Source: Eledone cirrhosa (Eukaryota). Taken from it: DNA of 64,000 nucleotides. This document shows positions 8,695 to 62,500 of the stretch, one piece after another; position 1 is the first letter of the stretch; each line of letters opens with the position of its first letter. The notes under the pieces are model-generated. The model was given only the letters and a program-made list of their open reading frames with translations, had not been told where the DNA came from and did not search any database. The stretch covers positions 7,378,001-7,442,000 of the forward strand of contig OZ024751.1 of the NCBI GenBank assembly GCA_964016885.1. Reading direction: 5' to 3'. The translations under genes were made by a program, and so were the position numbers.

Positions 8695-9285
8695 TGTATA
8701 TATAGTGTATTTTGCAATACCCTGTATGCTTAATTAAAAGCATTTTGAAGACCATGCGCTAATGTTTTCAAGTAGCGACATTGTCGCTTACATAAGTTTT
8801 CGGCAGACAGGGGGAGATAAGTTGACAGCGCTGTTTCGTACTAATTATGTGTTGGATTCTTATAGAATTCCAGTAACAATCAGAAACTGATTTTACAGAA
8901 CGGTCCCACGCCCAGCAGGAATTGAAAATTAGAATTGGTGCTCTGAAATAGCGATATATATATATGAATGTATACATATTGTATTTTACAATACATTGTA
9001 TGTTTAATAAAAATGACTGTTACTGGAATTCTATAAGAATCCAACATACATAATTTTCGGCAGACGGGGAATGTAGTGAGTTTTGATAAGTACCAACAAG
9101 TACGAAACAGCGCTGTCAACTTATCTCCCGCTGTCTGCCGAAAATTTATGTAAGCGACAATGTCGCTACTTTAAAACAATAGCGTATGCTCTTCAAAATA
9201 CTTTTAATTAAGCATACAGTGTATTAGAAAATACACTATATATATATTCATATATATATCGCTATTTCAGAGCAGCAATTCTAAT
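8690..9285. mobile_element. Retrozyme-like family B, head-to-head inverted copies
   Basis: 8690-9010 minus and 9015-9285 plus orientation of the same unit, between TA tracts. Confidence 0.8.
9078..9122 (+). ncRNA. Hammerhead ribozyme with U3-A8 core (family B)
   Basis: GAGUU-UUGAUAA-GUAC caacaa GUAC-GAAACAGCGCUGUC-AACUU; GUC cleavage triplet. Confidence 0.85.
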
Positions 9286-9290
9286 ATATA

Positions 9291-9349
<59 letters not shown>

Positions 9350-10369
9350 GATAGTGTGTAAAAATGGCAACAAAGAACATCTAATTCCAGTAAACGTTTT
9401 AAATGTTTTATCTTAAATAAAGTGTCTTTCGTTCGGAAGAAACAAAGCATTTTAAACTCCAATTCAGAATATTCCACTTTGTTGAACTGAATATAAACAC
9501 TCAATGGGCAACAATCATATTAATAAAAATATCCGAATAAATTGACTGGCAGCTTAATGTAGTAGCATGAATTAATTGAAATACATTAATATGCAAATTG
9601 AATACTTGCATTAATCTCCCATCATGAAATGTCAATTATTCAGTGTTGACTATTGATTTTACTTTGTCCTAATATCCGTGACTTCGATTGTCATCAATAT
9701 CATATAATGATCGACTTCGATGAATTTCCAGACTGTCTTACACTTGACATACACAAAATACTGACATGTTTCTATTAATTTAAGTCAAAGTTGAACACTG
9801 CGGGATGTGTTATCTGAGTAATCCATGTTCCTAATTTAACAGAATATTCGTTTCATTGTGGAGAATTGTGCAAACTATTTCTTCTCTTTGACAGAATGGA
9901 TGAAACTATTAACCTTCAATTGTGCTAGAGTTAAGTTAGTGTCAATATATTTAAGCACGAAATATCAGAGTTATTTTGAAATAATCATGCTGTGAAAAAG
10001 GAAAACAAATCAATATGTTCCTGTCTTCACTATTATGAGAGACATCTTCTTGACCCGTTTAACGATAATGACCTCTTCGAATAATGTTAATATATAACAC
10101 GCTAGGTCACGCCTTATATATTTTTTCGCTTGGTTACTATTTTCAAATCAAGCTGAACAGAGGAAGCACTAGCCCTGATGAGAGAGGAGAATATGCATTG
10201 GTTTATATTTTAAAGAAATAGCCATTTCCTCCAACATACGTTGAGACCTAAATCATACACATTTCTTCAAATTCTGAATTTAATGTTTAAAACATGAGAC
10301 CAAGTTATGTTACTTACATACACACGCATAGATGCATACATTCACATACACACACACGGAAACACACAC

Positions 10370-10475
<106 letters not shown>

Positions 10476-10477
10476 TA

Positions 10478-10835
10478 TACTTGGAGATGGTCATGTTGCC
10501 AGTATTGTCAATAAAAAATAAATACGCACCACATGGATTTCACGTGATCTTTATTGCTCGTTATTCATTTGTTAGTCAAAGTACTTTCATCATACATTCT
10601 GGGACATCTATAAGGTTTGAAAGAAGAGGAGACACAGAAGAGAACATAAGTGATTAAAGAGGTCATAGATCGTGTGACAAAGAATTTTGACAAACGAGTG
10701 ATTAACGACCAAAACACAATCAAGTGAATTTCACGTGCTGCGTTTTCCTTTTTAATGTAAATACTGGCAACATGACCCTCCCCATATATAACAACAACGG
10801 TGTCAACACACGATTTCACACCAATAATCTTGCAG
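10478..10835. mobile_element. Diverged fold-back copy of family D (PLE terminal-repeat-like)
   Basis: ggtcatgttgccagtatt (10489) is inverted at aatactggcaacatgacc (10760); decayed HHR aagaggtca...gtgacaaagaattttgaca. Confidence 0.6.
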
Positions 10836-10974
10836 GATATATATATATATATATGTGCGTGTGTGCGTGCGTGTGTGTGTGTCTGTGACTCTGTACGTGT
10901 CGGTGTGTGTCCGTGAAGTCTCTTCCCTGGTTCAATCAGACGTACCCAGAGTAAGTACAGTACTGAATATATTA

Positions 10975-11140
10975 ATTGGTTCTACTTTTGACACAAGGCC
11001 ACCAATTACTCAGTGCATTACTGGTACTTTATTTTATGGACCCCGTAAAGATAAAAGACAAATTTAACATCGGCGGCATTTGAACTGAGAATGGCAAGGG
11101 CCGTAAATCTATGTGTTAAAGCATAGCGTCTGACCCTCTA
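10975..11140 (-). mobile_element. tRNA-derived SINE (octopus-type)
   Basis: Reverse complement of the SINE at 16.2k and 50.4k (B-box-like agttcaaatgccgcc; ataaaataaagtaccag). Confidence 0.75.
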
Positions 11141-11499
11141 CCGGAAATTTATAAAATTTATATTTATAAAATTTATAAAATTTATAATAAATTGAAGTGG
11201 AAAGCATCTGGTGCGTGTGTTTATATATGAGGACATATAGAAAAAAGGAAAGAATAGAGTAACAATTCTACAGGGATTTTTGGAGTAAAACATCAAAACT
11301 TTTATTTAAAAAGAAGGGATTTCCGCATTTAATTGTGTACAGTTTTCAGCTTTATATGATTTATGGACGGCAGTTAAATTGCATATTAATACAAATAATA
11401 ATAAATTGGAGAGAAAAATGTTTTAGTTTTTACATACATATTTAGGTAGGAATGTTCATATTTTTGTCCATAGTATGTGTATATATATATATATATATA

Positions 11500-12498
11500 T
11501 ACGTAGTTAAGAAAGCCACAACAATGCAGAGGGAAATCTCGAGGTAGGAAGTAAATGATAGATAGGAGAAACAGGTGAAAGTGAGAATTGAGAGAGACAA
11601 AGATGAAAACAAAACAAAGGTAGAAGGGTTACCGTAGTGGAGATTTAATCCCAATATTTCGGGCTCACGCCATCAACGGGGGAAAGTTCCCAAAGAGGGG
11701 GAAGAAACAGGCCAAGCGGAGAAAGTTGTGATGTCGTTAAGACAGGAATGCCGTTATGGGGAGAAAATTATTTAAAATTTAAACGAGGGAAAGAATGCGC
11801 GTGCGCGTGATAGGCTGTGGCAAAAGCTACTGACCAAATGGGTTAAATCAAGAGGGTGCGCTAGCGTGTGAAAGCCGTAAAATATGTGTGTGTAAATATA
11901 TATGTGTGTGTAACTGTGTGTGTATAAGTGTAAGTGTGTATATGTGTGAGTGTGTGTGTGTGTGAAAGATAGTGGGCTGTAGAAGCTGGAAATCAAAGGG
12001 TGTGAAAGGTGGTAGGTAGTAAAAACATGTGTGCGTGTATAAATATAGATGTGTGTGTGTAAGCGTATGGGTAAACATGTGTGTGTAACTGTGTGTGTAT
12101 ATGTGTGAGTGCGTGTGTGTGTGAAAGATAGTGGGCTGTAGAAGCTGAAATCAAAGGGTGTGAAAGGTGGTAGGTTGTAAAAACATGTGTGCGTGTATAA
12201 ATATATATGTGTGTGTGTATGCGTATGGGTATGCATATACGTGCGTGTGTGTGAAGATAGCAGGTCGTAGGCTGTGAATGGTCACTATGGTTAAGTTAGC
12301 CATGTCAGCTCATTTTTCTCAGCCCGGTTGTTAAGTGGGGGTCTGAGGTTCTTAATAACAAGTGCTTCCTTTATCCTTAAGGATCCGATGCTGCGTTCAG
12401 TCGCTAGGACTGTGACCAAGGGTCTACCCTGTGGGTTTCCGCATTTAAGGATGTGTTTACGGAAGTCCTAGCGACTGAACGCAGCATCGGATCCTTAA
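11500..12498 (-). mobile_element. 5'-truncated Penelope-like element: GIY-YIG C-terminus plus 3' UTR, with a short inverted cap
   Basis: Minus 12300-12465 reads FRKHILKCGNPQGRPLVTVLATERSIGSLRIKEALVIKNLRPPLNNR; 12466-12498 is an inverted copy of about 12376-12411; about 160-bp tandem duplication in the UTR. Confidence 0.65.
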
Positions 12499-12499
12499 A

Positions 12500-13145
12500 T
12501 GGGTTAAATAACAACCTTATTCGAGTGGCGCGGTAAGGTATTGTCAGCCATTGAAAAGAAATATGGAGAGTTGATCTAACAGCACTAGGGTTAGAGCCCC
12601 TAATTACACTGACAAGGAGCAGCCTTATCGTTATGACTCTGCTGGCTTAGAGCCACAGACAGGGCCAGTGGATGATGGATCAGCTGTCTCTGAAACAAAT
12701 ATAAAGAATGCAGTTTTGTCCTGCAGAAGAGCCATCAAAATTGGCATTTGAATGTGAGAACTATTCGGACGCTGGAGAAGAGAGAGGAGTTGGGACATCT
12801 GTTCGAGGAGTGTGGTATACAGATCCAAGAACACAGGATTCTACACGATGAGCCCGTGAGGAGTGTGATGATCGGGAGGAAGAGCCAGCTCATCACTACA
12901 TCGGCAGTGAAGAACACAACAAATGCTGCAGTAGGAGGAGTGGGTTTTGTGTTCAGTGCAAAAACCAATCTGTTGGTGAGGGAAATAATGCCTATCTCCC
13001 CGCGAGTGTTGAGGGTGACCTTCAATGGAAACCCAAGACTGACAGTCAACTCAGCCTATAGTCCAACCGGGGGGGGGGGGACAGTGATGTGAATGCGGAA
13101 GAGTTCCATGAGGAGGTGTGTAGAGCTGTCAACACCACTCAGGCA
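12500..13145 (+). mobile_element. RTE-group LINE 5' part (UTR plus APE endonuclease fragment)
   Basis: NVRTIRTLEKREEL...IQEHRILH...GGVGFVFS...[25 protein letters not shown]; ends in a TA tract. Confidence 0.85.
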
Positions 13146-13149
13146 CACA

Positions 13150-13180
<31 letters not shown>

Positions 13181-13354
13181 AGTATATATATATGTTGATA
13201 TATATATATATATGTATATATATATATGTATATATATGTATATATATGTATATATATATGTATATATGTATCTACATATGTATATATATATGTATATTTA
13301 TATATTTATATGTATATATATATATATATATGTATATATATGTATATATATATG

Positions 13355-13386
<32 letters not shown>

Positions 13387-13396
13387 CATATATATG

Positions 13397-13440
<44 letters not shown>

Positions 13441-13698
13441 TGTATATATATATATATGTATATACCGATATCTGCATTGCTTTATTGTACTACAATAAAA
13501 CTCACCTCCTACATATATATATATATATATATACTTATATGTATATATATATATATTTATATGCATATATATATATATACATATATATATACATATATAA
13601 ATATATATATATATATATGCATATATATATATTTATATATACATATATATATATACATATATACTTATATATATATATATACAAATATATATACATAA

Positions 13699-13775
<77 letters not shown>

Positions 13776-13790
13776 ACATATATCTATATC

Positions 13791-13822
<32 letters not shown>

Positions 13823-13849
13823 CATATATATATAAACGTAAATATGTAA

Positions 13850-14375
13850 TATGTATACGTACATACATATATGTATACAGACGTACAGTAGTATGTATAT
13901 ATATACATACAAGCACATATACGTATATGCACGTATCGGTTTACCGAACATTTATTATAATGCTCGATTTGTTTGTGTGTAAACAAACAGACAGCCCGAA
14001 TTACGCCGTACAGTGTTTAGGCAACCACGTCACCTTTTTGTTCATCACTTACACAGGAACGATGTACTAGATTCAAGCTTATTAGCTATCGTCAGCATCG
14101 TATACCTATCCTGCCAGATGGTTGAACGTCTGACAATATATACTTTCCTTATGCATATTAACGGCTGAGCAGCCTTATTTGCCTATCGAGTGAGTTTAGT
14201 CGGCCGGGCACACTGAAAACGATAAATGGAATAGAATGAAACGAAATTTCATTTCTAACTCTTAGTACGGCAATTACTTAAACGTAAGTATGTTTGTATG
14301 TATACGTACATAAATATATGTATACACGACGTACAGTAGTATGTATATATATACATACATGCACACATACATATG
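13850..14375 (-). mobile_element. Retrozyme-like family A, about 1.2 units; HHR at 14059..14101 with GAAA to GAAU
   Basis: Circularly permuted unit; stem I here is ACGAUG/CAUCGU. Confidence 0.85.
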
Positions 14376-14379
14376 TTTT

Positions 14380-14700
14380 TTCCAAAAAACAAGATGGTGT
14401 AGGACAGAACAAAGGAGAGGCACAAAAACAAAGAAAATAATCCCCGGTCACATGAAGAGGTCACATAATGTGTGACGAAATAACTTTGACAATATATGAA
14501 CAATCGTCTGGTTCTGGAACAAACTAACCGGAAATTTATAAATTCCTAAATTTATAAATTTAATTTATAATAAATTGAAGTGAATGCAGCTGCTGCGTTT
14601 CTTTCTTATTGGCAACATGACCCTCCCAAAGTATAACAATATCGGTTTCAACACACGTTTTCAGATAAAGAATCTTGCTAAACAAATTCAGAAACGAAAT
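14380..14700 (+). mobile_element. Family D PLE terminal-repeat-like element with degenerate HHR (14447..14490)
   Basis: Matches 20370-20630 and 11140-11225; gtca-catgaaga-g-gtcac...gtgac-gaaataactt-tgac. Confidence 0.7.
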
Positions 14701-14707
14701 ATATATA

Positions 14708-15450
14708 TATAAAATTAGAAATGGTGCTCTGAAATAGCGATATATATATGAATGTATATATAGTGTATTTTGCAATACACTGTATGCTTAATTAAAAGCA
14801 TTTCGAAGACCTTACGCTATTGTTTTAAAGTTGTGACAGTCTAACTTACTTTAAAGTTTCAGCAAACAGGGCAGATAAAGCTGACAGAGCTCTGTTTCGT
14901 ACTGATTGGTACTTATCAAAGCCAAGTACTCCACCTGTTTGTGAAAATTATGAATGCTTGATTCTTATAGAATTCTAGTAATAATCAGGAATTGATTTTA
15001 CAGAGCGGAATAAATTGGAAGAAATTGAAAATTAGAAATGCTGCTCTGAAATACCGATATATATATGAATGTATATATAGTGTATTTTGCAATACACTAT
15101 ATGCTTAATTAAAAGCATTTCGAAGACCTTACGCTATTGTTTTAGAGTAGTGACAGTCTCACTTACATAAAATTTTCAGCAAACATGGGAGATAAAGCTG
15201 ACAGAGCTTTGTTTCGTACTGATTGGTACTTATCAAAGCCAAATACGAATTTTAATTAAGCATACACTATATATACATTCATATATATATCGTTATTTCA
15301 TAGCAGCATTTCTAATTTTAAAAATTCTGCCTGACCGGCAACCGCTCTGTATAATCATTTCCTGATTATTACTAGAATTATATAAGAATCAAGCATTCAT
15401 GATTTTCACAAACAGGTGGAGTACTTGGCTTTGATAAGTACCAATCAGTA
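14708..15450 (-). mobile_element. Retrozyme-like family B, 317-nt tandem plus inverted copy; U3-A8 HHRs at 14879..14923 and 15196..15240
   Basis: Reverse complement reads GGCU-UUGAUAA-GUAC caauca GUAC-GAAACAGAGCUCUGUC-AGCU; period 317; 15250-15450 is inverted. Confidence 0.85.
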
Positions 15451-24637: not shown

Positions 24638-25770
24638 AAACGGAAAAAAATGAAACGAAATTTCATTTCTCACTCTTATTACGGCTGTTACTTAAATATA
24701 AGTATGTATACGTACATACATATATGTATACAGACGTGCAGTAGTATGTATATGTATATATACATACATGCACACACATATATATATGTACGTATGAATT
24801 CACCGAACATTTATTATAATGCTCGGTGTGTTTGTAAACAAACATCCCGAATTAAGCCGTACAGTCTCTAGCAACCATCGTTTCTCATTTGTTCAACACT
24901 GACAAAGGAACGCTGTCCTAGTTTCAAGCTTATTAGCTATCGTCAGCAACGTATACCTTCCTGCCAGATGGTTGAAAGTCTAAAAGTATAAAGTTTCCTT
25001 ATGCATATTAACGGCTGAGTAGCCTAATTTGCATATCGAGTGAGTTAATCGGCCGGGGTACCGAAAACGATAAACGGAAAAAATGAAACGAAATTTCATT
25101 TCTCACTTCTTAGTACGGCTGTTACTTAAATATGAGTATATATACATACATACATGCATACATATATATATATATGTACGTATGGATTCACTGAACATTT
25201 ATTATAATGCTCGGTGTGTTTGTAAACAAACATCCCGAATTAATCCGTACTAGTTTCAAGCTTATTAGCTATCGTCAGCAACGTATACCTTGCGAGGTAT
25301 ACGTTGCTGGTATACGTACATACAAGGTATGTACGTATACATACTTATATCTAAGTAACAGCCGTACTAAGGGTGAGAAATTAAATTTCGTTTCATTTTT
25401 TTCGTTTATCGTTTTCGGTACTCCAGTCGATTAACTCACTCGATATGCAAATTAGGCTGCTCAGCCGTTAATATGCATAAGGAAAGTTTATACTTTCAGA
25501 CGTTCAACCATCTGGCAGGAAGGTATACGTTGCTGACGATAGCTAATAAGCTTGAAACTAGTACAGCGTTCCTTTGTCAGTGTTGAACAAATGAGCAACG
25601 ATGGTTGCTAGACACTGTACGGCTTAATTCGGGATGTTTGTTTACAAACACACCGAGCATTATAATAAATGTTCGGTGAATCCATACGTACATATATATG
25701 TGTGCATGTATGTATATATATATACATACTACTGTACGTCTGTATACATATTTGTATGTACGTATACTTA
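24638..25770. mobile_element. Retrozyme-like family A: tandem minus units then a fold-back plus unit
   Basis: Unit start recurs at 24638 and 25072 (period 434); HHRs at 24910..24952 (-, triplet mutated), 25248..25284 (-, partial) and 25527..25569 (+, intact). Confidence 0.9.
25527..25569 (+). ncRNA. Type I hammerhead ribozyme, family A
   Basis: ACGUUG-CUGACGA-UAGCUAAUAAGCUU-GAAACUAGUA-CAGCGU. Confidence 0.9.
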
Positions 25771-28207: not shown

Positions 28208-29740
28208 CTATGTCAGTGTGTTTATATGTGGATTGAAATGTATGTAGGATGTATGCTGATGTAGGTATGTATGTTGACGTGTGTATGTTGTGGGTTCGTC
28301 TTTGTGAGAAGTGTTTAGACGGGGTCCGTATTTGTTAATAAAGTGAGATTCCTTGCTGATGTGCTGGGTGTTGGTTGTATTATCTTTAAATTTGTAGAGA
28401 GGAAAGATTCTAAAGTTAGGATGATTTAGGGCGGCACAGGTATCAATGTGTTCACTCAGTGGTATTTTTCTGTATTCCCGTATCTTAATTTGGGATCTAT
28501 GGACAGCCATGCGTTGACGGACGCTGTTTTTAGTTTTGCCTATGTATTGTGCTCGACAACCTGAGCAAGTTAATACATATATTAGATTTTCTGATGCGCA
28601 TGTAAAACGTTGTCCTTCTTTGAAATATAATTCCGAACCCTCTATTAGGTTGATGCATATGCCACAGTTGGGTCTATAGTATTTCTTTAATGTGGGTTTC
28701 GATGTTGTGTTTGGCAGTACTTTGGAATGTGTTATGATGTTTTTCATTGACTTACATTGTCATTTGCTCTTCATGATTTCGTGTTCGAAGGATTTGGTTC
28801 ATTCTATGGTCCTTTTTTAACACGGGGATGTTCTGGAGGATGGTGTCAATGGCCTCATTGTTGAGGGGGTTGTGTGTGGAGATGTATGGAAGAGCTTTTA
28901 GTTTCGGTTGATTTACTTTAGGGTGTCTAAGGTTCTGGGTATTGAGTTTTAGGGCATGTTGGATTCCATTGTCAATTAGTGATGCAGGGTAGTCCCTGCT
29001 TATGAGTGTATCCTTTAATTCTTGTAGCCGTAAGTAACATATGTTTTTATTGGCTAAGTTGTAGGGAATATTAATTTTAACGTGTCTAGGGTGGCAATAA
29101 TTTAAATGAAGATATTGCTTGGAGTCTGTGGGTTTGTAGTATATGTCTGTTTCTATTTTGTTGTTATGAATCTTAATGAGGACGTCTAGGAAAGGGAGTT
29201 GCTGATGGCTGTATTCCATCGTAAAGTTAATATTCGTGGTGAGCCCATTTATAAGGGTGTGAAATTCTTTAAGTTCCTCGATGTTTTCGTGCCAAAGGAT
29301 GAAGCAGTCATCTAGATATCTCTTCCAGTACTTTTCTATGTGTAAGTGGAGAGTGTTTCCAAATTTGTTTAGTACTTTAGTGTAGAGGTTGATTTCCAGG
29401 TATCCCATGACTAGGTTGGCATAAGTGTGGGCCGTTTTCGTTCCCATAGCGGTCCCAGATTTCTGCCTGTAGGATCTGTTATTGAAAACGAAGTAATTGT
29501 TCTCCAAGATAAATTTGAGTACTTCTATCACGAATTCTTTTTTGATGCGTTGTGGGAGTCCTTTGTGGTAATTATTCAGCCAGAATTGGATAGCTTCTAT
29601 TCCTAGGTTGTGGGGGTTGTTGTAGTATAGGTTGACTACATCGAACGTCACTAGTAAGGGTTTGTTCAGTAAGGGGCATATTAGGGAGGTTATTGAGCAT
29701 ACCTAGGTCGTCCCTTATATAGCTTTTGATGTGTTTGAGA
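28208..29740 (-). mobile_element. Neptune-type Penelope-like element (RT plus CxxC-GIY-YIG), 5'-truncated and frameshifted
   Basis: ORF 28752..29651: TFDVVNLY, QKSGTAMGTK, WKRYLDDCF, LPFLDVLI, YYKPTDSKQYL; ORF 28208..28747: CGIC...NLIYVLTCSGCRAQYIGKT. Confidence 0.93.
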
Positions 29741-33503: not shown

Positions 33504-33727
33504 ATATATATATATATATATATATAAATATATATATATATAGGAACGAGTAGGACCCCGACAGCTGAGCTCGAGCCGTTTCGAAACGGCTTGGGCTCAG
33601 CCGTCGGGGTCCTACTCATTCCTATTACCCACTCTACTACCCTAAGTATTGAGTACTTTCGTGCGTTATGGTCCACCTGGTTCCTTACTACATTTCTTCC
33701 GTTATATATATATATATATATATATAT

Positions 33728-34250
33728 AAACGGAAAAAATGAAACAGAATTTCATTTCCCACTCTTAGTACGGCTGTTACTTAAATATAAGTATGTACAC
33801 GTACATACATATATGTATACAGACATACAGTAGTATGTATATATATATACATACATGCCCACATATATATATGTACGTTTATCGTTTTCGGTGCACCCGG
33901 CCGATTAACCCACTCGATATGCAAATTGGGCTACTCAGCCATTAATATGCATAAGGTAAGTATATACGTTCAACAATCTGGCAGGAAGGTATACGTTGCT
34001 GGCGATAGCTAATAAGCTTGAAACTAGTACAGCGTTCCTTTGTCAGTGTTGAACAAACGAGCAACGATGGTTGCTAGACACTACGACTTAATACGGGATG
34101 TTTGTTTCCAAACACACCGAGCATTATAATAAATGTTCGGTGAATCCATACGTACATATATATATATATGTGGGCATGTATGTATATATATATATACATA
34201 CTATTGTATGTATGTGTACATATATGTATGTACGTGTACATACTTATATA
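33728..34250. mobile_element. Retrozyme-like family A fold-back; HHR at 33993..34035 with CUGGCGA mutation
   Basis: 33728-33876 minus, 33877-34250 plus orientation. Confidence 0.85.
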
Positions 34251-56299: not shown

Positions 56300-56342
56300 C
56301 AGGAAAGAAGAGTGACACGGTTTGCTATACAAAAAAGGTTTT

Positions 56343-56461
56343 TATTCTCATTGCTGACAATTGTTTCTCTGAACTGGTAGATCGCTACCCGCTTGTTTTC
56401 ACGTTATTCGATCACCAATACAAAGTTATAACCAATCAATTCATCAGAGCTTGTGAGAATG
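56343..56461 (-). ncRNA. Hammerhead ribozyme with extended stem I and long stem II region
   Basis: Reverse complement AUUCUCAcaaGCU-CUGAUGA-(about 73 nt)-GAAAC AAUU GUC-AGCaaUGAGAAU; base of stem II imperfect. Confidence 0.75.
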
Positions 56462-56574
56462 AAAGGAATATACAGGAATATACATCCACTACCCGGAGTA
56501 CCATAACTGGACTACACTTAAGTGGACTACCTATAACAATAATCTGTTACCCCGTATATATATATATATATCGT

Positions 56575-59430
56575 TAAATCATATCTTTACAAAGCTCTTA
56601 CAGACGTTTCCCTTAATGGTGCTCGTCTGAGGCAGATATTAAGGTAATGTTTTAATTATATACCCTATTCCGGTAAAATAATAATTTTACATCACAGTGC
56701 ATATTAAATATACGTGGTTAAGTATAAAACACGGTGGGATGAGATTAGTATGCTAAGGGAGGTAATTACCGATGATACTAAAACGTTTCGTCTCTAACTA
56801 ATGTCCTCTGCCCACTATGTAAAATGTTTTACTTTATTATTTAAAAGGAATTAACATAAGTACGGTTAGTCAACTCAGTGTAAATGAGGCCGTGTTAAGG
56901 TGTGAGTATGAATAATTAGTAAAGTCGTTAAAGACCACACACAGTTTTAACTAGTGCAATGGTGCACGTTAGGTGCGGATCTGCAGGCCTAGAAAAATAA
57001 AGTCAATTTGGATATAATTTGTATATTCATATGAATAATTGTCTAAGAAGTTGCATGGGTATAGGCAGCATTTCTCTAAGATTACCCAAAGACCAGTCAG
57101 GCCAAGTGGAAGAATATAGCGGGGTAGACCCGGTTGAATATAGGCAGTGCGGCTTCCTGGTGGGAAGACAGAGGGTGGATGATGGGGTTATTCCACGTTG
57201 TTTAATGTTACGTCTACCGCCGGTAAGTCAGGCCAGGCTGTGGTGTTGCGAGCATCAGGTGTTGTGGTAGTTATACAGTTGTTGGGGTCCATCTGTGGAA
57301 AGATGATTGTAGTGGATGGCCGAAATTGATGACAGTTTCAGCCCAACTATTTATGAGCTCTTGGGGTAATACAGTTCCATTAGACATAGTTGGCAGCTTT
57401 TTTTAAAATTGTATGGTTTTGCTTGATTCACAATTTCCCAATGAGTGGTGTTAGAGTCATTTCATTGGGTAATATAGTTAGCGAGGGAGGTAGAGTATCT
57501 AAGCTTCCTACTCCTAAAAGAGGGGAGATGTGCTCGAAATCTGGTCTTGAACGCCCCAGAAGTAGCTCCTATGTAATACTTAACACTATTATGACTAGTA
57601 ACCGTGAATCTATATATAAAATTTCTAGTCAAGCAGTAGCCTCGGAGTGGACAGTTTACAGGGTTACGACAATTGCAATGTTGTTTGTTGTCACCTCTAA
57701 AGTGGTGAGTGTTGGTGTTCATCGTATTACTATTAGTATCACCATCACCATAGCTACCATTGTTGTAGTTGGCATTATTATAGCTATAAACACGCGAAAT
57801 GGTGCAACGCTCACCTCTCGTGGTATAGTGTCTTCTACAGCCGTTATTAGAGCTGCTATGGTTTCTAACCCTGTCGTCGGTCACACTACTGCTGCAGCAG
57901 TTAGTTTCTAATGTGGTGCTATTATGTAATCTACTGCTAATACTAATATACCTGTTCTGGTTACTACTATCATTGTCGTGCGGGGCGAGAGAATTGTTAA
58001 GGTTAACCGAGTTGTCATATTCCCTAAAATTCTCATTACTAGCATGTTGTATTCTAGTGAGCTTGCTGTGGTTACTTATTGCTATGAGGTCGGCTAGATT
58101 AGGTGGAGTGGAATTGATTTTTACGTTATTCTTATTGAAGATGTTTCTGTATCTGTGGTTAGGGGCAAAGTTCCTCTCTAAGGCGTCGCAAAAGATACTG
58201 GGTAAATTGGAGACCACACTCCGAGAGTAGGGTGGGGGGGATGGAACCATAGGACATTAGGACGGCGATTACGTATATTTCTGGGGTTACTACGAGGGTT
58301 ATTGCCTTGGTAGGTGTCCCTATAAGGGCTATAGGGATTATGTATAACCTGTGCTCTGTTGGTATTATGCCTGAGTGCACAGGCACACCCAGTGCGGCGG
58401 TTCAGAGTTACCCTAGGCGGATTAGAAGGTGTAGGTAATAAACCGTCACCTTTATTAAGCTTGTAAGCGGGGAATAATTCCAGTAGGCTGCAGTTACTCC
58501 TATTATTAGCCGGACCATGATGGTGGGTGTATGGTAATATATCCGTCCCACTAGCTTTATGGTTATGATGCGGGCCGTAGCTAGTGGCATTATTAGCTCC
58601 TCTAATACCGTTTACGCTTGTAGGGCCGCTGTGGCGTTGGTTATGTGTATGGCTAGCTATAACACTGGAACTACACGAGGGGGCTTTATAGAGCCTGCGA
58701 CATGGAAGTATGAAATGTTGCTGTTATAACCTGAATCAGCCAATGCCTTGTTATAATAATCAGCAGTCTGGTTAAAGAGGTCTTCATTAGCAGAAAGTCT
58801 CGAGATGCTATGTGAGATGCTATACACAATAGAGTTGATTGTATATTTAGGGTGGTTGGAAGCATAGTTGACGTAGGAAAGGACCTCATCAGGCTTGTGG
58901 TATGATCTGTATAAGTCGGTACCTAATTCTAACGTAACATCTAAGAAATTAACTATATTATTTTTGTGGTAGATAGTTACAGAGAGGCCATATGATTTTA
59001 AAGAACTTGTGTATATGTTTATTAAGGTTTTCTATCCTACGGAGGCTATGGTTCTTTACGGTGTCTATCGTCCCTATATACACCGCCTTGAGTCACAGGG
59101 ATCTCGTCTCTAAGTCTGTGCAGGAGGTAAATTCCGACCAGGTCAGTTGCCTGCGCTGAGACACTTGATCCCATCGTGATATCAAAGTTATCAGGACGGT
59201 TAGTTCTGGTCCAGTAGGACCCTCGAAATGAACAATGTTTCTTTTTAGTTAAACTAGTCTTAGATCTAGCTAAGATGAGTGCCTTATTTAAGAGGCGGAG
59301 TAATTGTCTATGTCGAAGTGGATAAATTTCAGAGATGACTTATCAGGTAAATCTGTGAACCATTTAATGACCTGGTCGGTATTGCTTCATAGCTTTACTA
59401 TTAAATTCAGGTATTATCCTATTGAGGATA
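56575..59430 (-). mobile_element. Naiad-type Penelope-like element (RT to GIY-YIG plus 3' UTR), degenerate
   Basis: MGSSVSAQATDLVGIYLL near 59125-59175; VNFLDVTL; YHKPDEVLSYVNYASNHP; ORF 57462..58250 PPYS...CNCRNPVNCPLRGYCL...YYIGATSGAFKTR. Confidence 0.9.
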
Positions 59431-59599
59431 ACTTTTTATAAAAATCGTCATTTTTCTATACTTCACGCCTAGTATTTATTTTTCCTATACATAAAAAAAA
59501 ATGTATATATTGGTTTATATACATCCCATATGATATGTCCCAAGGCTATGATACCATCAATACTATACACACAGAGCTGGCATATCTAATAACTGACTA

Positions 59600-59655
59600 A
59601 CTGCCTGATGAGGTCATAGCCATTCAATGGCTATCATCGAAACATATATAGCAGT
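59600..59655 (+). ncRNA. Hammerhead ribozyme, inverted relative to the adjacent PLE
   Basis: ACUGC-CUGAUGA-GGUcAUAGCCAUucaAUGGCUAUcAUC-GAAACAUAUAUA-GCAGU. Confidence 0.85.
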
Positions 59656-59697
59656 AAATAAAGGATTATGAGTTCATGCAATTGACTTATGTTTCGT

Positions 59698-59776
<79 letters not shown>

Positions 59777-60694: not shown

Positions 60695-60836
60695 CTCGCT
60701 TTGTGAAATACACTATATCACTATTTGTTTCAGATGGGGTTTAATATATATGTATATATATATGTAAGTATGTATACGTACATACATATATGTGTACAGA
60801 CGTACAGTAGTATGTATATATACATATACATACATG

Positions 60837-60909
<73 letters not shown>

Positions 60910-62466
60910 GTATGGATTTACCGAACATTTATTATAATGCTCGGTTTGTTTGTAAACAAACATCCCGAATTAAGACGTACAGTGATTAGCAACCATCGTT
61001 GACCTTTTGTTCAATACTGACAAAGGAACGATGTACTAGTTTCAAGCTTATTAGCTATCATCAGCACCGTATACCTTCCTGCCAGATGATTGAACGTCTG
61101 AAATTATATACTTTCCTCATGCATACTAACGGCTGAGCAGCCTAATTTGCATATCGAGTTAGTTAATCGGCCGGGCGCACCGAAAACGATAAATGGATAA
61201 AATGAAACGAAATTTCATTTCTCACTCTTAGTACAGCTGTTACATAAATATAAGTATGTATAAGTACATACAGATATGTATACAGACGTACAGTAATATG
61301 TATATATATATACATACATACACACATATATATATATATGTACGTATGGATTTACCGAACATTTATTATAATGCTGGGTTTGTTTGTAAACAATCATCCC
61401 CAATTATGCCGTACAGTATTTAGCAACCATCGTTGCCCTTTTGTTCAACACTGACAAAGGAACGATTTACTAGTTTCAAGCTTATTAGCTATCGTCAGCA
61501 CCGTATTAGTTTCAAAGATATTATCTATCGTCAGCACCTGATGTTTCTTTACAAACAAACCGAACATTATAATAAATGTTCGGTAAATTCATATGTACAT
61601 ATATATATATGTGTGTGCATGTATGTATATATATATATATATATATATCCATACTACTGTACGTATGTATACATATATGTATGTACGTATACATACTCAT
61701 ATTTAAGTAACAGTCGTACTAAGAGTGAGAAATGAAATTTCGTTTCATTTCATCCATTTATCGTTTTCGGTGAGCCCGGCCTATTAACTCACTCGATATG
61801 CTTTCAGACGTTCAACCATCTGGCAGGAAGGTATACGATGCTGACGATAGCTAATAAGCTTGAAACAAGTAGATCGTTCCTTTGTCAGTATTGAATAAAG
61901 GGTCAACGATGGTTGCTAAACACTGTACGTCTTAATTCGGGTTGTTTGTTTACAAACAAACCGAGCATTATAATAAATGTTCGGTAAATCCATACGTATA
62001 TATATATATATATGTGTGCATGTATGTATATGCATATATACATACTACTGTACGTCTGTACACATATATGTATGTACGTATACATACTTATATATATATA
62101 TACATATATATTAAACCCCATCTGAAACAAATAGTGATATAGTGTATTTCACAAAGCGACGATGCAGACGATAGCTAATAAGCTTGAAACTAGTACATCG
62201 TTCCTGTGTCAGTGTTGAACAAAAAGGTGACGTGGTTGCCTAAACACTGTACGGCGTAATGTTTACAAACAGACAAACCGAGCATTATAATAAATGTTCC
62301 GTAAACCGATACGTGCATATATATGTGTGCATGTGTGTATATATATACATACTACTGTACGTATGTATACATATATGTATGTAAGTATACATACATACAT
62401 ACTTACATCTAAGTAAGTGCCGTACTAAGAGTGAGAAATGAAATTTCGTTTCATTCTATTCCATTC

Positions 62467-62470
<4 letters not shown>
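60695..62470. mobile_element. Largest family A array: two minus units, fold-back, then plus units
   Basis: HHRs at 61028..61070 and 61462..61504 (-, period 434), 61507..61538 (partial), 61835..61877 and about 62158..62201 (+). Confidence 0.9.

Positions 62471-62500
<30 letters not shown>

Follow-up and report, generated by a model that had tools for sequence, protein, structure and literature searches.

Penelope-like elements that carry an endonuclease are inserted as partial tandem units with an inverted, 5'-truncated copy, a tail at one end, an AT-rich or (TA)n target and a hammerhead motif, all of which recur in the element described here (PMC8557442, PMC3846280, PMC11167929). Two start sites of reverse transcription have been found for Penelope in vitro, and the one in vitro study showed that hammerhead cleavage could be dispensed with (PMC11167929). 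The origin of the inverted ends of these elements and the closure of their 5' junctions remain open in the available text of these reports (PMC8557442, PMC11167929). Metazoan non-LTR retrozymes share with our element a low-GC tandem unit (434 nt here), a type I hammerhead with a short palindromic helix III, and a very high copy number; they differ in forming long arrays, whereas here the insertions are short, dispersed and two-armed (PMC7229834, 10.64898/2026.07.22.740005). For L1, genomic DNA duplicated in inverted orientation at the reciprocal end of an insertion has been attributed to self-annealing of that end, then synthesis and end joining (10.1101/2024.12.14.628481).

Here we describe an insertion in a stretch of 64,000 nt of the Eledone cirrhosa genome (the window, in which all positions are given) that contains an inverted copy of its own left target flank. 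As far as the assembled sequence can tell, this inverted flank copy is real. We tentatively favor an account in which it arose as a second element copy entered the end of an older, two-armed insertion and a broken DNA end folded back. No host function is implied.

The repeat family and the layout of the locus

The unit of the repeat, family A, is 434 nt long and non-coding, has a GC content of about 0.34 and carries a single type I hammerhead motif; the window contains five loci of this family. No ORF of 150 aa was found across the insertion. The motif has the core, its stem II is short, its helix III is palindromic, and the 6 bp of stem I show paired changes among copies, a layout that fits the description of metazoan and Penelope hammerheads (PMC4209133). 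Ten matches to the motif are present in the window, seven of them with all 6/6 stem I pairs. Rfam returned no hammerhead at its gathering score, nor among 148 matches at E up to 5, which were driven by microsatellites, and the assignment therefore rests on the motif. Folding of the hammerheads as single strands was not significant (z of -0.4 to -1.1).

Four of the five loci are pairs of arms set back to back, with both 3' ends in (TA)n. In each of these (4/4) one outer end is long, with the tail, and the other is short, and (TA)n adjoins all eight outer ends. The marks of a Penelope-type insertion are thus found together: an inverted 5'-truncated arm, a tail at a single end, and an AT-rich or microsatellite target. 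Also found are the type I hammerhead and the short, low-GC, non-coding tandem unit of a non-LTR retrozyme, for which unit lengths of 150-450 bp apply. We consider that the element likely behaves like a non-LTR retrozyme mobilised by a Penelope-type enzyme, with a putative ribozyme whose self-cleavage is predicted. From the endonuclease-bearing Penelope-like units it differs in having no ORF and in a tail of about 60 nt as against 30-40 nt (PMC8557442, PMC3846280, PMC11167929).

Several further features of the window deserve mention in their own right. At the centre of another family A locus (25247-25340), a hammerhead 5' half is joined at the predicted cleavage site and is followed by two perfect hairpins, one with a 15-bp stem and a 4-nt loop and one with a 14-bp stem and a 3-nt loop, as if both cDNA ends had snapped back before joining. 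At 33878-33882 the 5' end of a right arm coincides with the long start site, from which the left arm sets out on the RNA; this is the geometry of twin priming on a single RNA. A tail-end remnant of 13-16 nt lies opposite the left arm across (TA)n, tail to tail (33691-33745), and a near-perfect hairpin of about 80 bp, of unrelated sequence, lies between two TA runs (33543-33625). A second repeat family occurs in inverted arrangements at 8700-9250 and 14750-15270, with a junction palindrome near 15075-15102. Positions 28208-29702 (- strand) hold a broken element with reverse transcriptase and GIY-YIG parts (RVT_1 weak, at E 0.0036; GIY-YIG at E 4.5e-7), inside which no family A match falls and for which no ends in common with family A were found. 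A decayed Penelope-like element at 56300-59700 (- strand), with a different hammerhead-like motif on the + strand at about 59601-59655, gave no Pfam match for the single frame tested.

The locus of interest, at 60696-62500, is laid out in Table 1. Its internal 5' ends at 61506, 61538 and 62159 are all no more than about 4 nt away from where stem I starts, a point at which a cDNA end could fold over and pair with itself; internal 5' ends near this point were not seen at the other four loci. The short unit S3 provides one of two junctions in the window that fall at the predicted cleavage site, the other being at 25247-25286. Its stem II reads AGA/TCT in place of AGC/GCT, a paired change that preserves the stem. 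The last unit, S5, has A at core base 62166, where about 99% of family reads have T.

Table 1. Features of the insertion and its target junctions, from left to right.
Feature	Position	Strand	Remarks
X, low-copy left flank	60696..60745	+	50 bp; original of the inverted copy
Interrupted (TA)n at left target junction	60744..60764	.	21 nt from element end to flank
S1, left arm outer unit	60765..61072	-	hammerhead to short (tail-less) 3' end; hammerhead motif 61028-61070
Left arm, middle of 434-nt unit	61073..61249	-	tail block plus the blocks upstream of it
S2, left arm inner partial unit	61250..61506	-	5' end at hammerhead stem I
S3, hammerhead 5' half	61504..61538	-	35 nt; extends from stem I to near the predicted cleavage site
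S4 inner part, right arm	61540..61832	+	left arm no nearer than a sibling copy; 45-bp deletion after 61802
S4b, outer unit of right arm	61833..62090	+	hammerhead 61835-61877; S1 variants at 61890, 61903, 61930, 62063
Inverted copy of TA run and X	62091..62159	+	X' = 62110-62159
S5, 5'-truncated unit of other subfamily	62159..62468	+	stem I to long (tail) 3' end
(TA)n(TG)n, right target junction	62467..62500	.

The flank segment and its inverted copy

Segment X (60696-60745) is the exact reverse complement of X' (62110-62159) at 50 of 50 bases, as the original prediction had reported, and with the TA run included the exact inverted run amounts to 68 bp (60696-60763 against 62092-62159). The identity ends abruptly at the outer side, with zero outward extension, and the composition-based expectation for such an inverted match by chance is about 3e-24 per window. 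The spacer from the element end to the flank is 21 nt on the left and in the copy alike. Also as noted there, hammerhead stem I is where the next unit begins: the first letters of S5, from 62159 on, are ACGATG, the 5' strand of this stem, and S5 has one base (A) in common with X'.

One danger named at the outset was that the 50-bp segment might be a regular part of a family A subvariant, and we find this to be ruled out by read and contig depth. In three contig sets from one sample, depth on X is 3.8-7.5, as against 1e5-2e6 on the hammerhead; the family repeat is about 100,000 times deeper in the reads than X. Because X is low-copy in the reads and the family vastly deeper, X is not a part of the family. 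In a RAD run from another individual, which samples only part of the genome, none of 24,904 placed reads lay over 62100-62155. The 14-mers of X have no further occurrence within the window. We also considered X as a piece of some other repeat and rejected this, its sole matches, of 11-13 nt, being to another family (8700-15262). We likewise rejected that family A copies its flanks as a rule: when 14-mers of the 400-bp flanks were sought inside each insertion, one locus of five showed it, and four 14-mer flank hits on the left side of the 24.6-kb locus fell within TA-mixed sequence.

Placement of contigs and reads covered 62100-62310, and the sample behind the contigs is probably the source of the assembly, hence not independent of it. 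Other runs (X1-X17) contain 5-10% of the words. Among the 24 pieces listed at the junction 62159/62160 (7,454 further ones exist) there was none that bridges it, and contig depth was flat across X' in all three contig sets. In the RAD run, 15,055 loose ends at 62159 gave as their consensus ordinary upstream family sequence. Two RAD joints of the 'opposite strand' kind (27 and 18 reads, with two start places each) were set aside, as they end in a near-palindromic family block. The short-read contigs neither confirm nor refute the junction of X' with S5.

Uneven arms, two subfamilies and the competing accounts

S5 differs from the copy at 13836-14103 at 12 of 206 positions and from S1, S2 and S4b at 29-30 of 206, and a tree puts it in another subfamily with support of 99/97. 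In the other two-armed loci both arms belong to one subfamily (3/3). S5 reads in RNA sense along the + strand and has its tail end against the right-hand (TA)n. In target-primed reverse transcription, synthesis starts at the 3' (tail) end in the flank, so S5 would have been copied from the right flank leftwards, with stem I as the stop point; judged by this polarity, it likely ends at hammerhead stem I and does not restart there. The age of S5 is less easily read: its roughly three private changes in 150 bp are compatible with either age, and its tree branch (0.047) is equal in length to that of S2.

The two arms were compared over 504 columns, with microsatellite columns masked. They differ at 28 of these, in addition to a 45-bp deletion and 50 nt of TA length, and the differences are unevenly spread: 27/348 before 61943 (inner) as against 1/156 after it (outer), with a permutation p of 0.005. 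When the arms are split at the predicted cleavage site instead, the counts are 22/277 inner and 6/227 outer (p 0.011), which without X become 22/277 and 6/177, at p 0.07 only. At the inner divergence, 0 differences in 68 bp would have a p of 0.004. S4a differs from S2 at 11/107 positions (p 0.006 against 6/227) and contains no private S2 letters. S4b, on the other hand, shares with S1 four variants (61890, 61903, 61930 and 62063) that are absent from the other aligned copies, and the tree groups the end of the inverted arm with the left arm (support 91/94). Two of these variants could be tested in family contigs and reads, where they make up less than 3% of letters; variant 61903 lies in an ambiguous part of the alignment, where subfamily B aligns with a shift. 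Such rarity in reads does not make the variants private, and S1 and S4b may belong to a small sub-subfamily. From the two levels of divergence we predicted that about 4.7 changes found in S1 only would have been passed to S4b, and four were seen. Within the inverted arm, resemblance to the left arm is confined to the last 220-290 bp. The copied tract would begin between about 61845 and 61943, with the left edge of the S1-like tract at 61845-61890; four arm differences fall among the variants common to S1 and S4b at 61896-61942.

The flank copy is a local inverted duplication that lies in a nest of Penelope-type hammerhead-motif repeats. We believe that its origin is best, though tentatively, explained by two insertion events, a reading to which we give a probability of about 0.45: reverse transcription would have placed a second copy in the end of a two-armed insertion that was already there, and the free DNA end would have paired with the inverted arm, been extended through it into the flank and been joined. 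In the first step, a subfamily-A RNA would have inserted into (TA)n as the usual back-to-back arms, S1-S3 and S4. Later, a subfamily-B RNA would have been target-primed from the right-hand (TA)n at the long 3' start site, its cDNA (S5) ending at hammerhead stem I. The left broken end, trimmed into S4b, would then have paired with its inverted homologue S1, about 1 kb away, and been extended over the end of S1, the TA run and 50 bp of flank, so that the old end of S4 was overwritten by S1 sequence. Finally, the extended end would have been joined to the cDNA at the junction that we observe, with one base in common.

This two-event account is the simplest. The 68-bp block, the four variants of S1 and S4b, the uneven arms, the subfamily of S5 and the agreement of about 4.7 predicted with 4 observed changes all speak for it. 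Against it stand statistics that are modest, an S5 of undatable age, and outer ends that are canonically short and long. Taken as a whole, the structure ends short on one side and long on the other, like a single event (4/4 two-armed loci), and the account has to assume loss of the original long end of S4.

The original prediction had synthesis snap back through the inserted copy into the flank, switch back to the element template and restart at the ribozyme, leaving a direct footprint of integration. Two parts of this are supported: a single block comprising the element end, the TA run and 50 bp of flank was copied, as the equal spacers indicate, and the end of the inverted arm groups with the left arm in the tree and by the four shared variants. 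Copying of the whole arm from the centre is not borne out, given 27/348 against 1/156 differences and a centre junction (61539) without microhomology. A return to the same template is not supported, given the subfamily of S5, nor is the restart, given its polarity. The footprint is probably one of break repair at a 5' junction and not of the regular path of integration.

The strongest competitor, which we consider somewhat unlikely, is a jump of the cDNA itself. The S5 cDNA, having stopped at stem I, would have jumped onto the left flank or a read-through RNA, copied X and the end of S1, and then annealed to S4 or switched to another RNA monomer at the cleavage site, in one multi-template event or in a second event. 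The canonical short and long ends of the whole insertion speak for it, and there are precedents for its central step: in R2, the ends of the cDNA prime on target DNA close by (PMC11371274), and the stretches copied in templated insertions of L1 are shorter than 250 bp and lie within 15 bp of the insertion site (10.1101/2024.08.27.596794). The edge of the S1-like tract at 61845-61890 brackets the predicted cleavage site (61871/61872), at which two short hammerhead pieces also end (S3 and 25247-25286), but by our estimate an edge in that 45-bp gap has a chance of about one in ten anyway. The jump would moreover depend on a single homologous base and, as a single event, would require two subfamilies and several diverged templates, unlike the other two-armed loci (3/3). 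In its most ambitious form, a single Penelope-type reverse transcriptase complex would have made the whole 1.7-kb insertion, moving from the RNA of one subfamily to target DNA, across to the opposite junction, and from monomer to monomer at hammerhead cleavage sites; this we hold to be unlikely. Were it true, ribozyme-cut ends would be templates in vivo, and flank capture a regular by-product of closing the Penelope 5' junction.

More doubtful still is a snap-back of the whole arm at 61539, continued into 50 bp of flank in one event, with the outer ends homogenised later by gene conversion. S4 and X' do mirror S2, S1 and X collinearly over 620 bp, short snap-backs exist in the family (the 15-bp and 14-bp hairpins at 25276-25340), and palindromes at Penelope inversion junctions have been interpreted as self-priming (PMC3846280). 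The lack of microhomology at the centre and the improbability of a block of 68 bp free of differences unless conversion is invoked weigh against it, and it needs as extras a conversion tract across X and a subfamily-B template in trans.

An artefact of the assembly or library, whether from a read that was chimeric or folded back or from polishing across the inverted copies, appears very improbable to us. It would accord with the junction that no listed piece bridges, with the flat depth over X', and with the presence of the stretch in only one sample, probably the source. A palindrome within a read would not give arms that differ by 28/504 columns, a 45-bp deletion and 50 nt of TA length, nothing homologous is present to steer a misjoin into S5, and contigs drop low-depth links into repeat tangles. 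Least probable of all is that S5 came first, that the left end folded back within (TA)n and copied X, and that subfamily A later entered the centre of the palindrome: (TA)n is the target of the family and one L1 inverted duplication was primed by TA/AT homology (10.1101/2024.12.14.628481), but both A arms would then stand at the short site, as against one short and one long end in 3/3 other loci, and would have to leave equal 21-nt spacers on both sides.

The flank copy marks DNA-templated synthesis during closure of the 5' junction. Should the account of a second insertion with fold-back of a broken end hold, old two-armed insertions would act as built-in fold-back primers upon re-insertion into their TA-rich ends. 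Arm sequences would be rewritten in the process, estimates of age from arm identity would be biased, and small palindromes of host DNA would be created. The positions at which copied tracts start, at the cleavage site or anywhere, would separate repair from jumping of the reverse transcriptase. As a single locus, the present case is an accident of the L1/R2-like kind.

Relation to known systems

Within the available text of the papers on endonuclease-bearing Penelope-like units, an inverted copy of the target flank is not described (PMC8557442, PMC3846280, PMC11167929), and the available text of a further report contains nothing on inverted flank copying (PMC9977147). We found no published Penelope-like case in a search that left subscription papers and supplements outside its scope, and supplements may hold such cases.

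Closer parallels are found in other retroelement classes. In the reciprocal-end duplications of L1, as here, an inverted copy of local DNA stands next to a target-primed insertion, and its junction with the cDNA end shows little homology or none (10.1101/2024.12.14.628481). At our locus, too, an inverted copy of adjacent genomic DNA is joined to the 5' end of what would be a target-primed copy, with one base at the cDNA junction and a fold-back point that would lie within the homologous arms, at 61845-61943. The two systems differ in how the end folds: in L1 a 2-bp homology and a small hairpin are used (10.1101/2024.12.14.628481), whereas here the fold-back would rely on a long inverted repeat that a previous insertion had left and would span a loop of about 1 kb, and the element is non-coding and of Penelope type.

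The snap-back 5' junctions of R2 in PRINT are alike in that extra synthesis is templated by DNA, on the element's own cDNA or on nearby target (PMC11371274), and the templated insertions of L1 are alike in copying short templates near the site before the 5' junction closes (10.1101/2024.08.27.596794). Both differ in that the cDNA end is the primer, which matches the cDNA jump considered above and not the fold-back of a broken end, and in that they concern other classes of retroelement (PMC11371274, 10.1101/2024.08.27.596794). Local inverted duplications of this sort are known from L1 and R2, and the insertion described here varies an accident that is already known to befall target-primed insertion.
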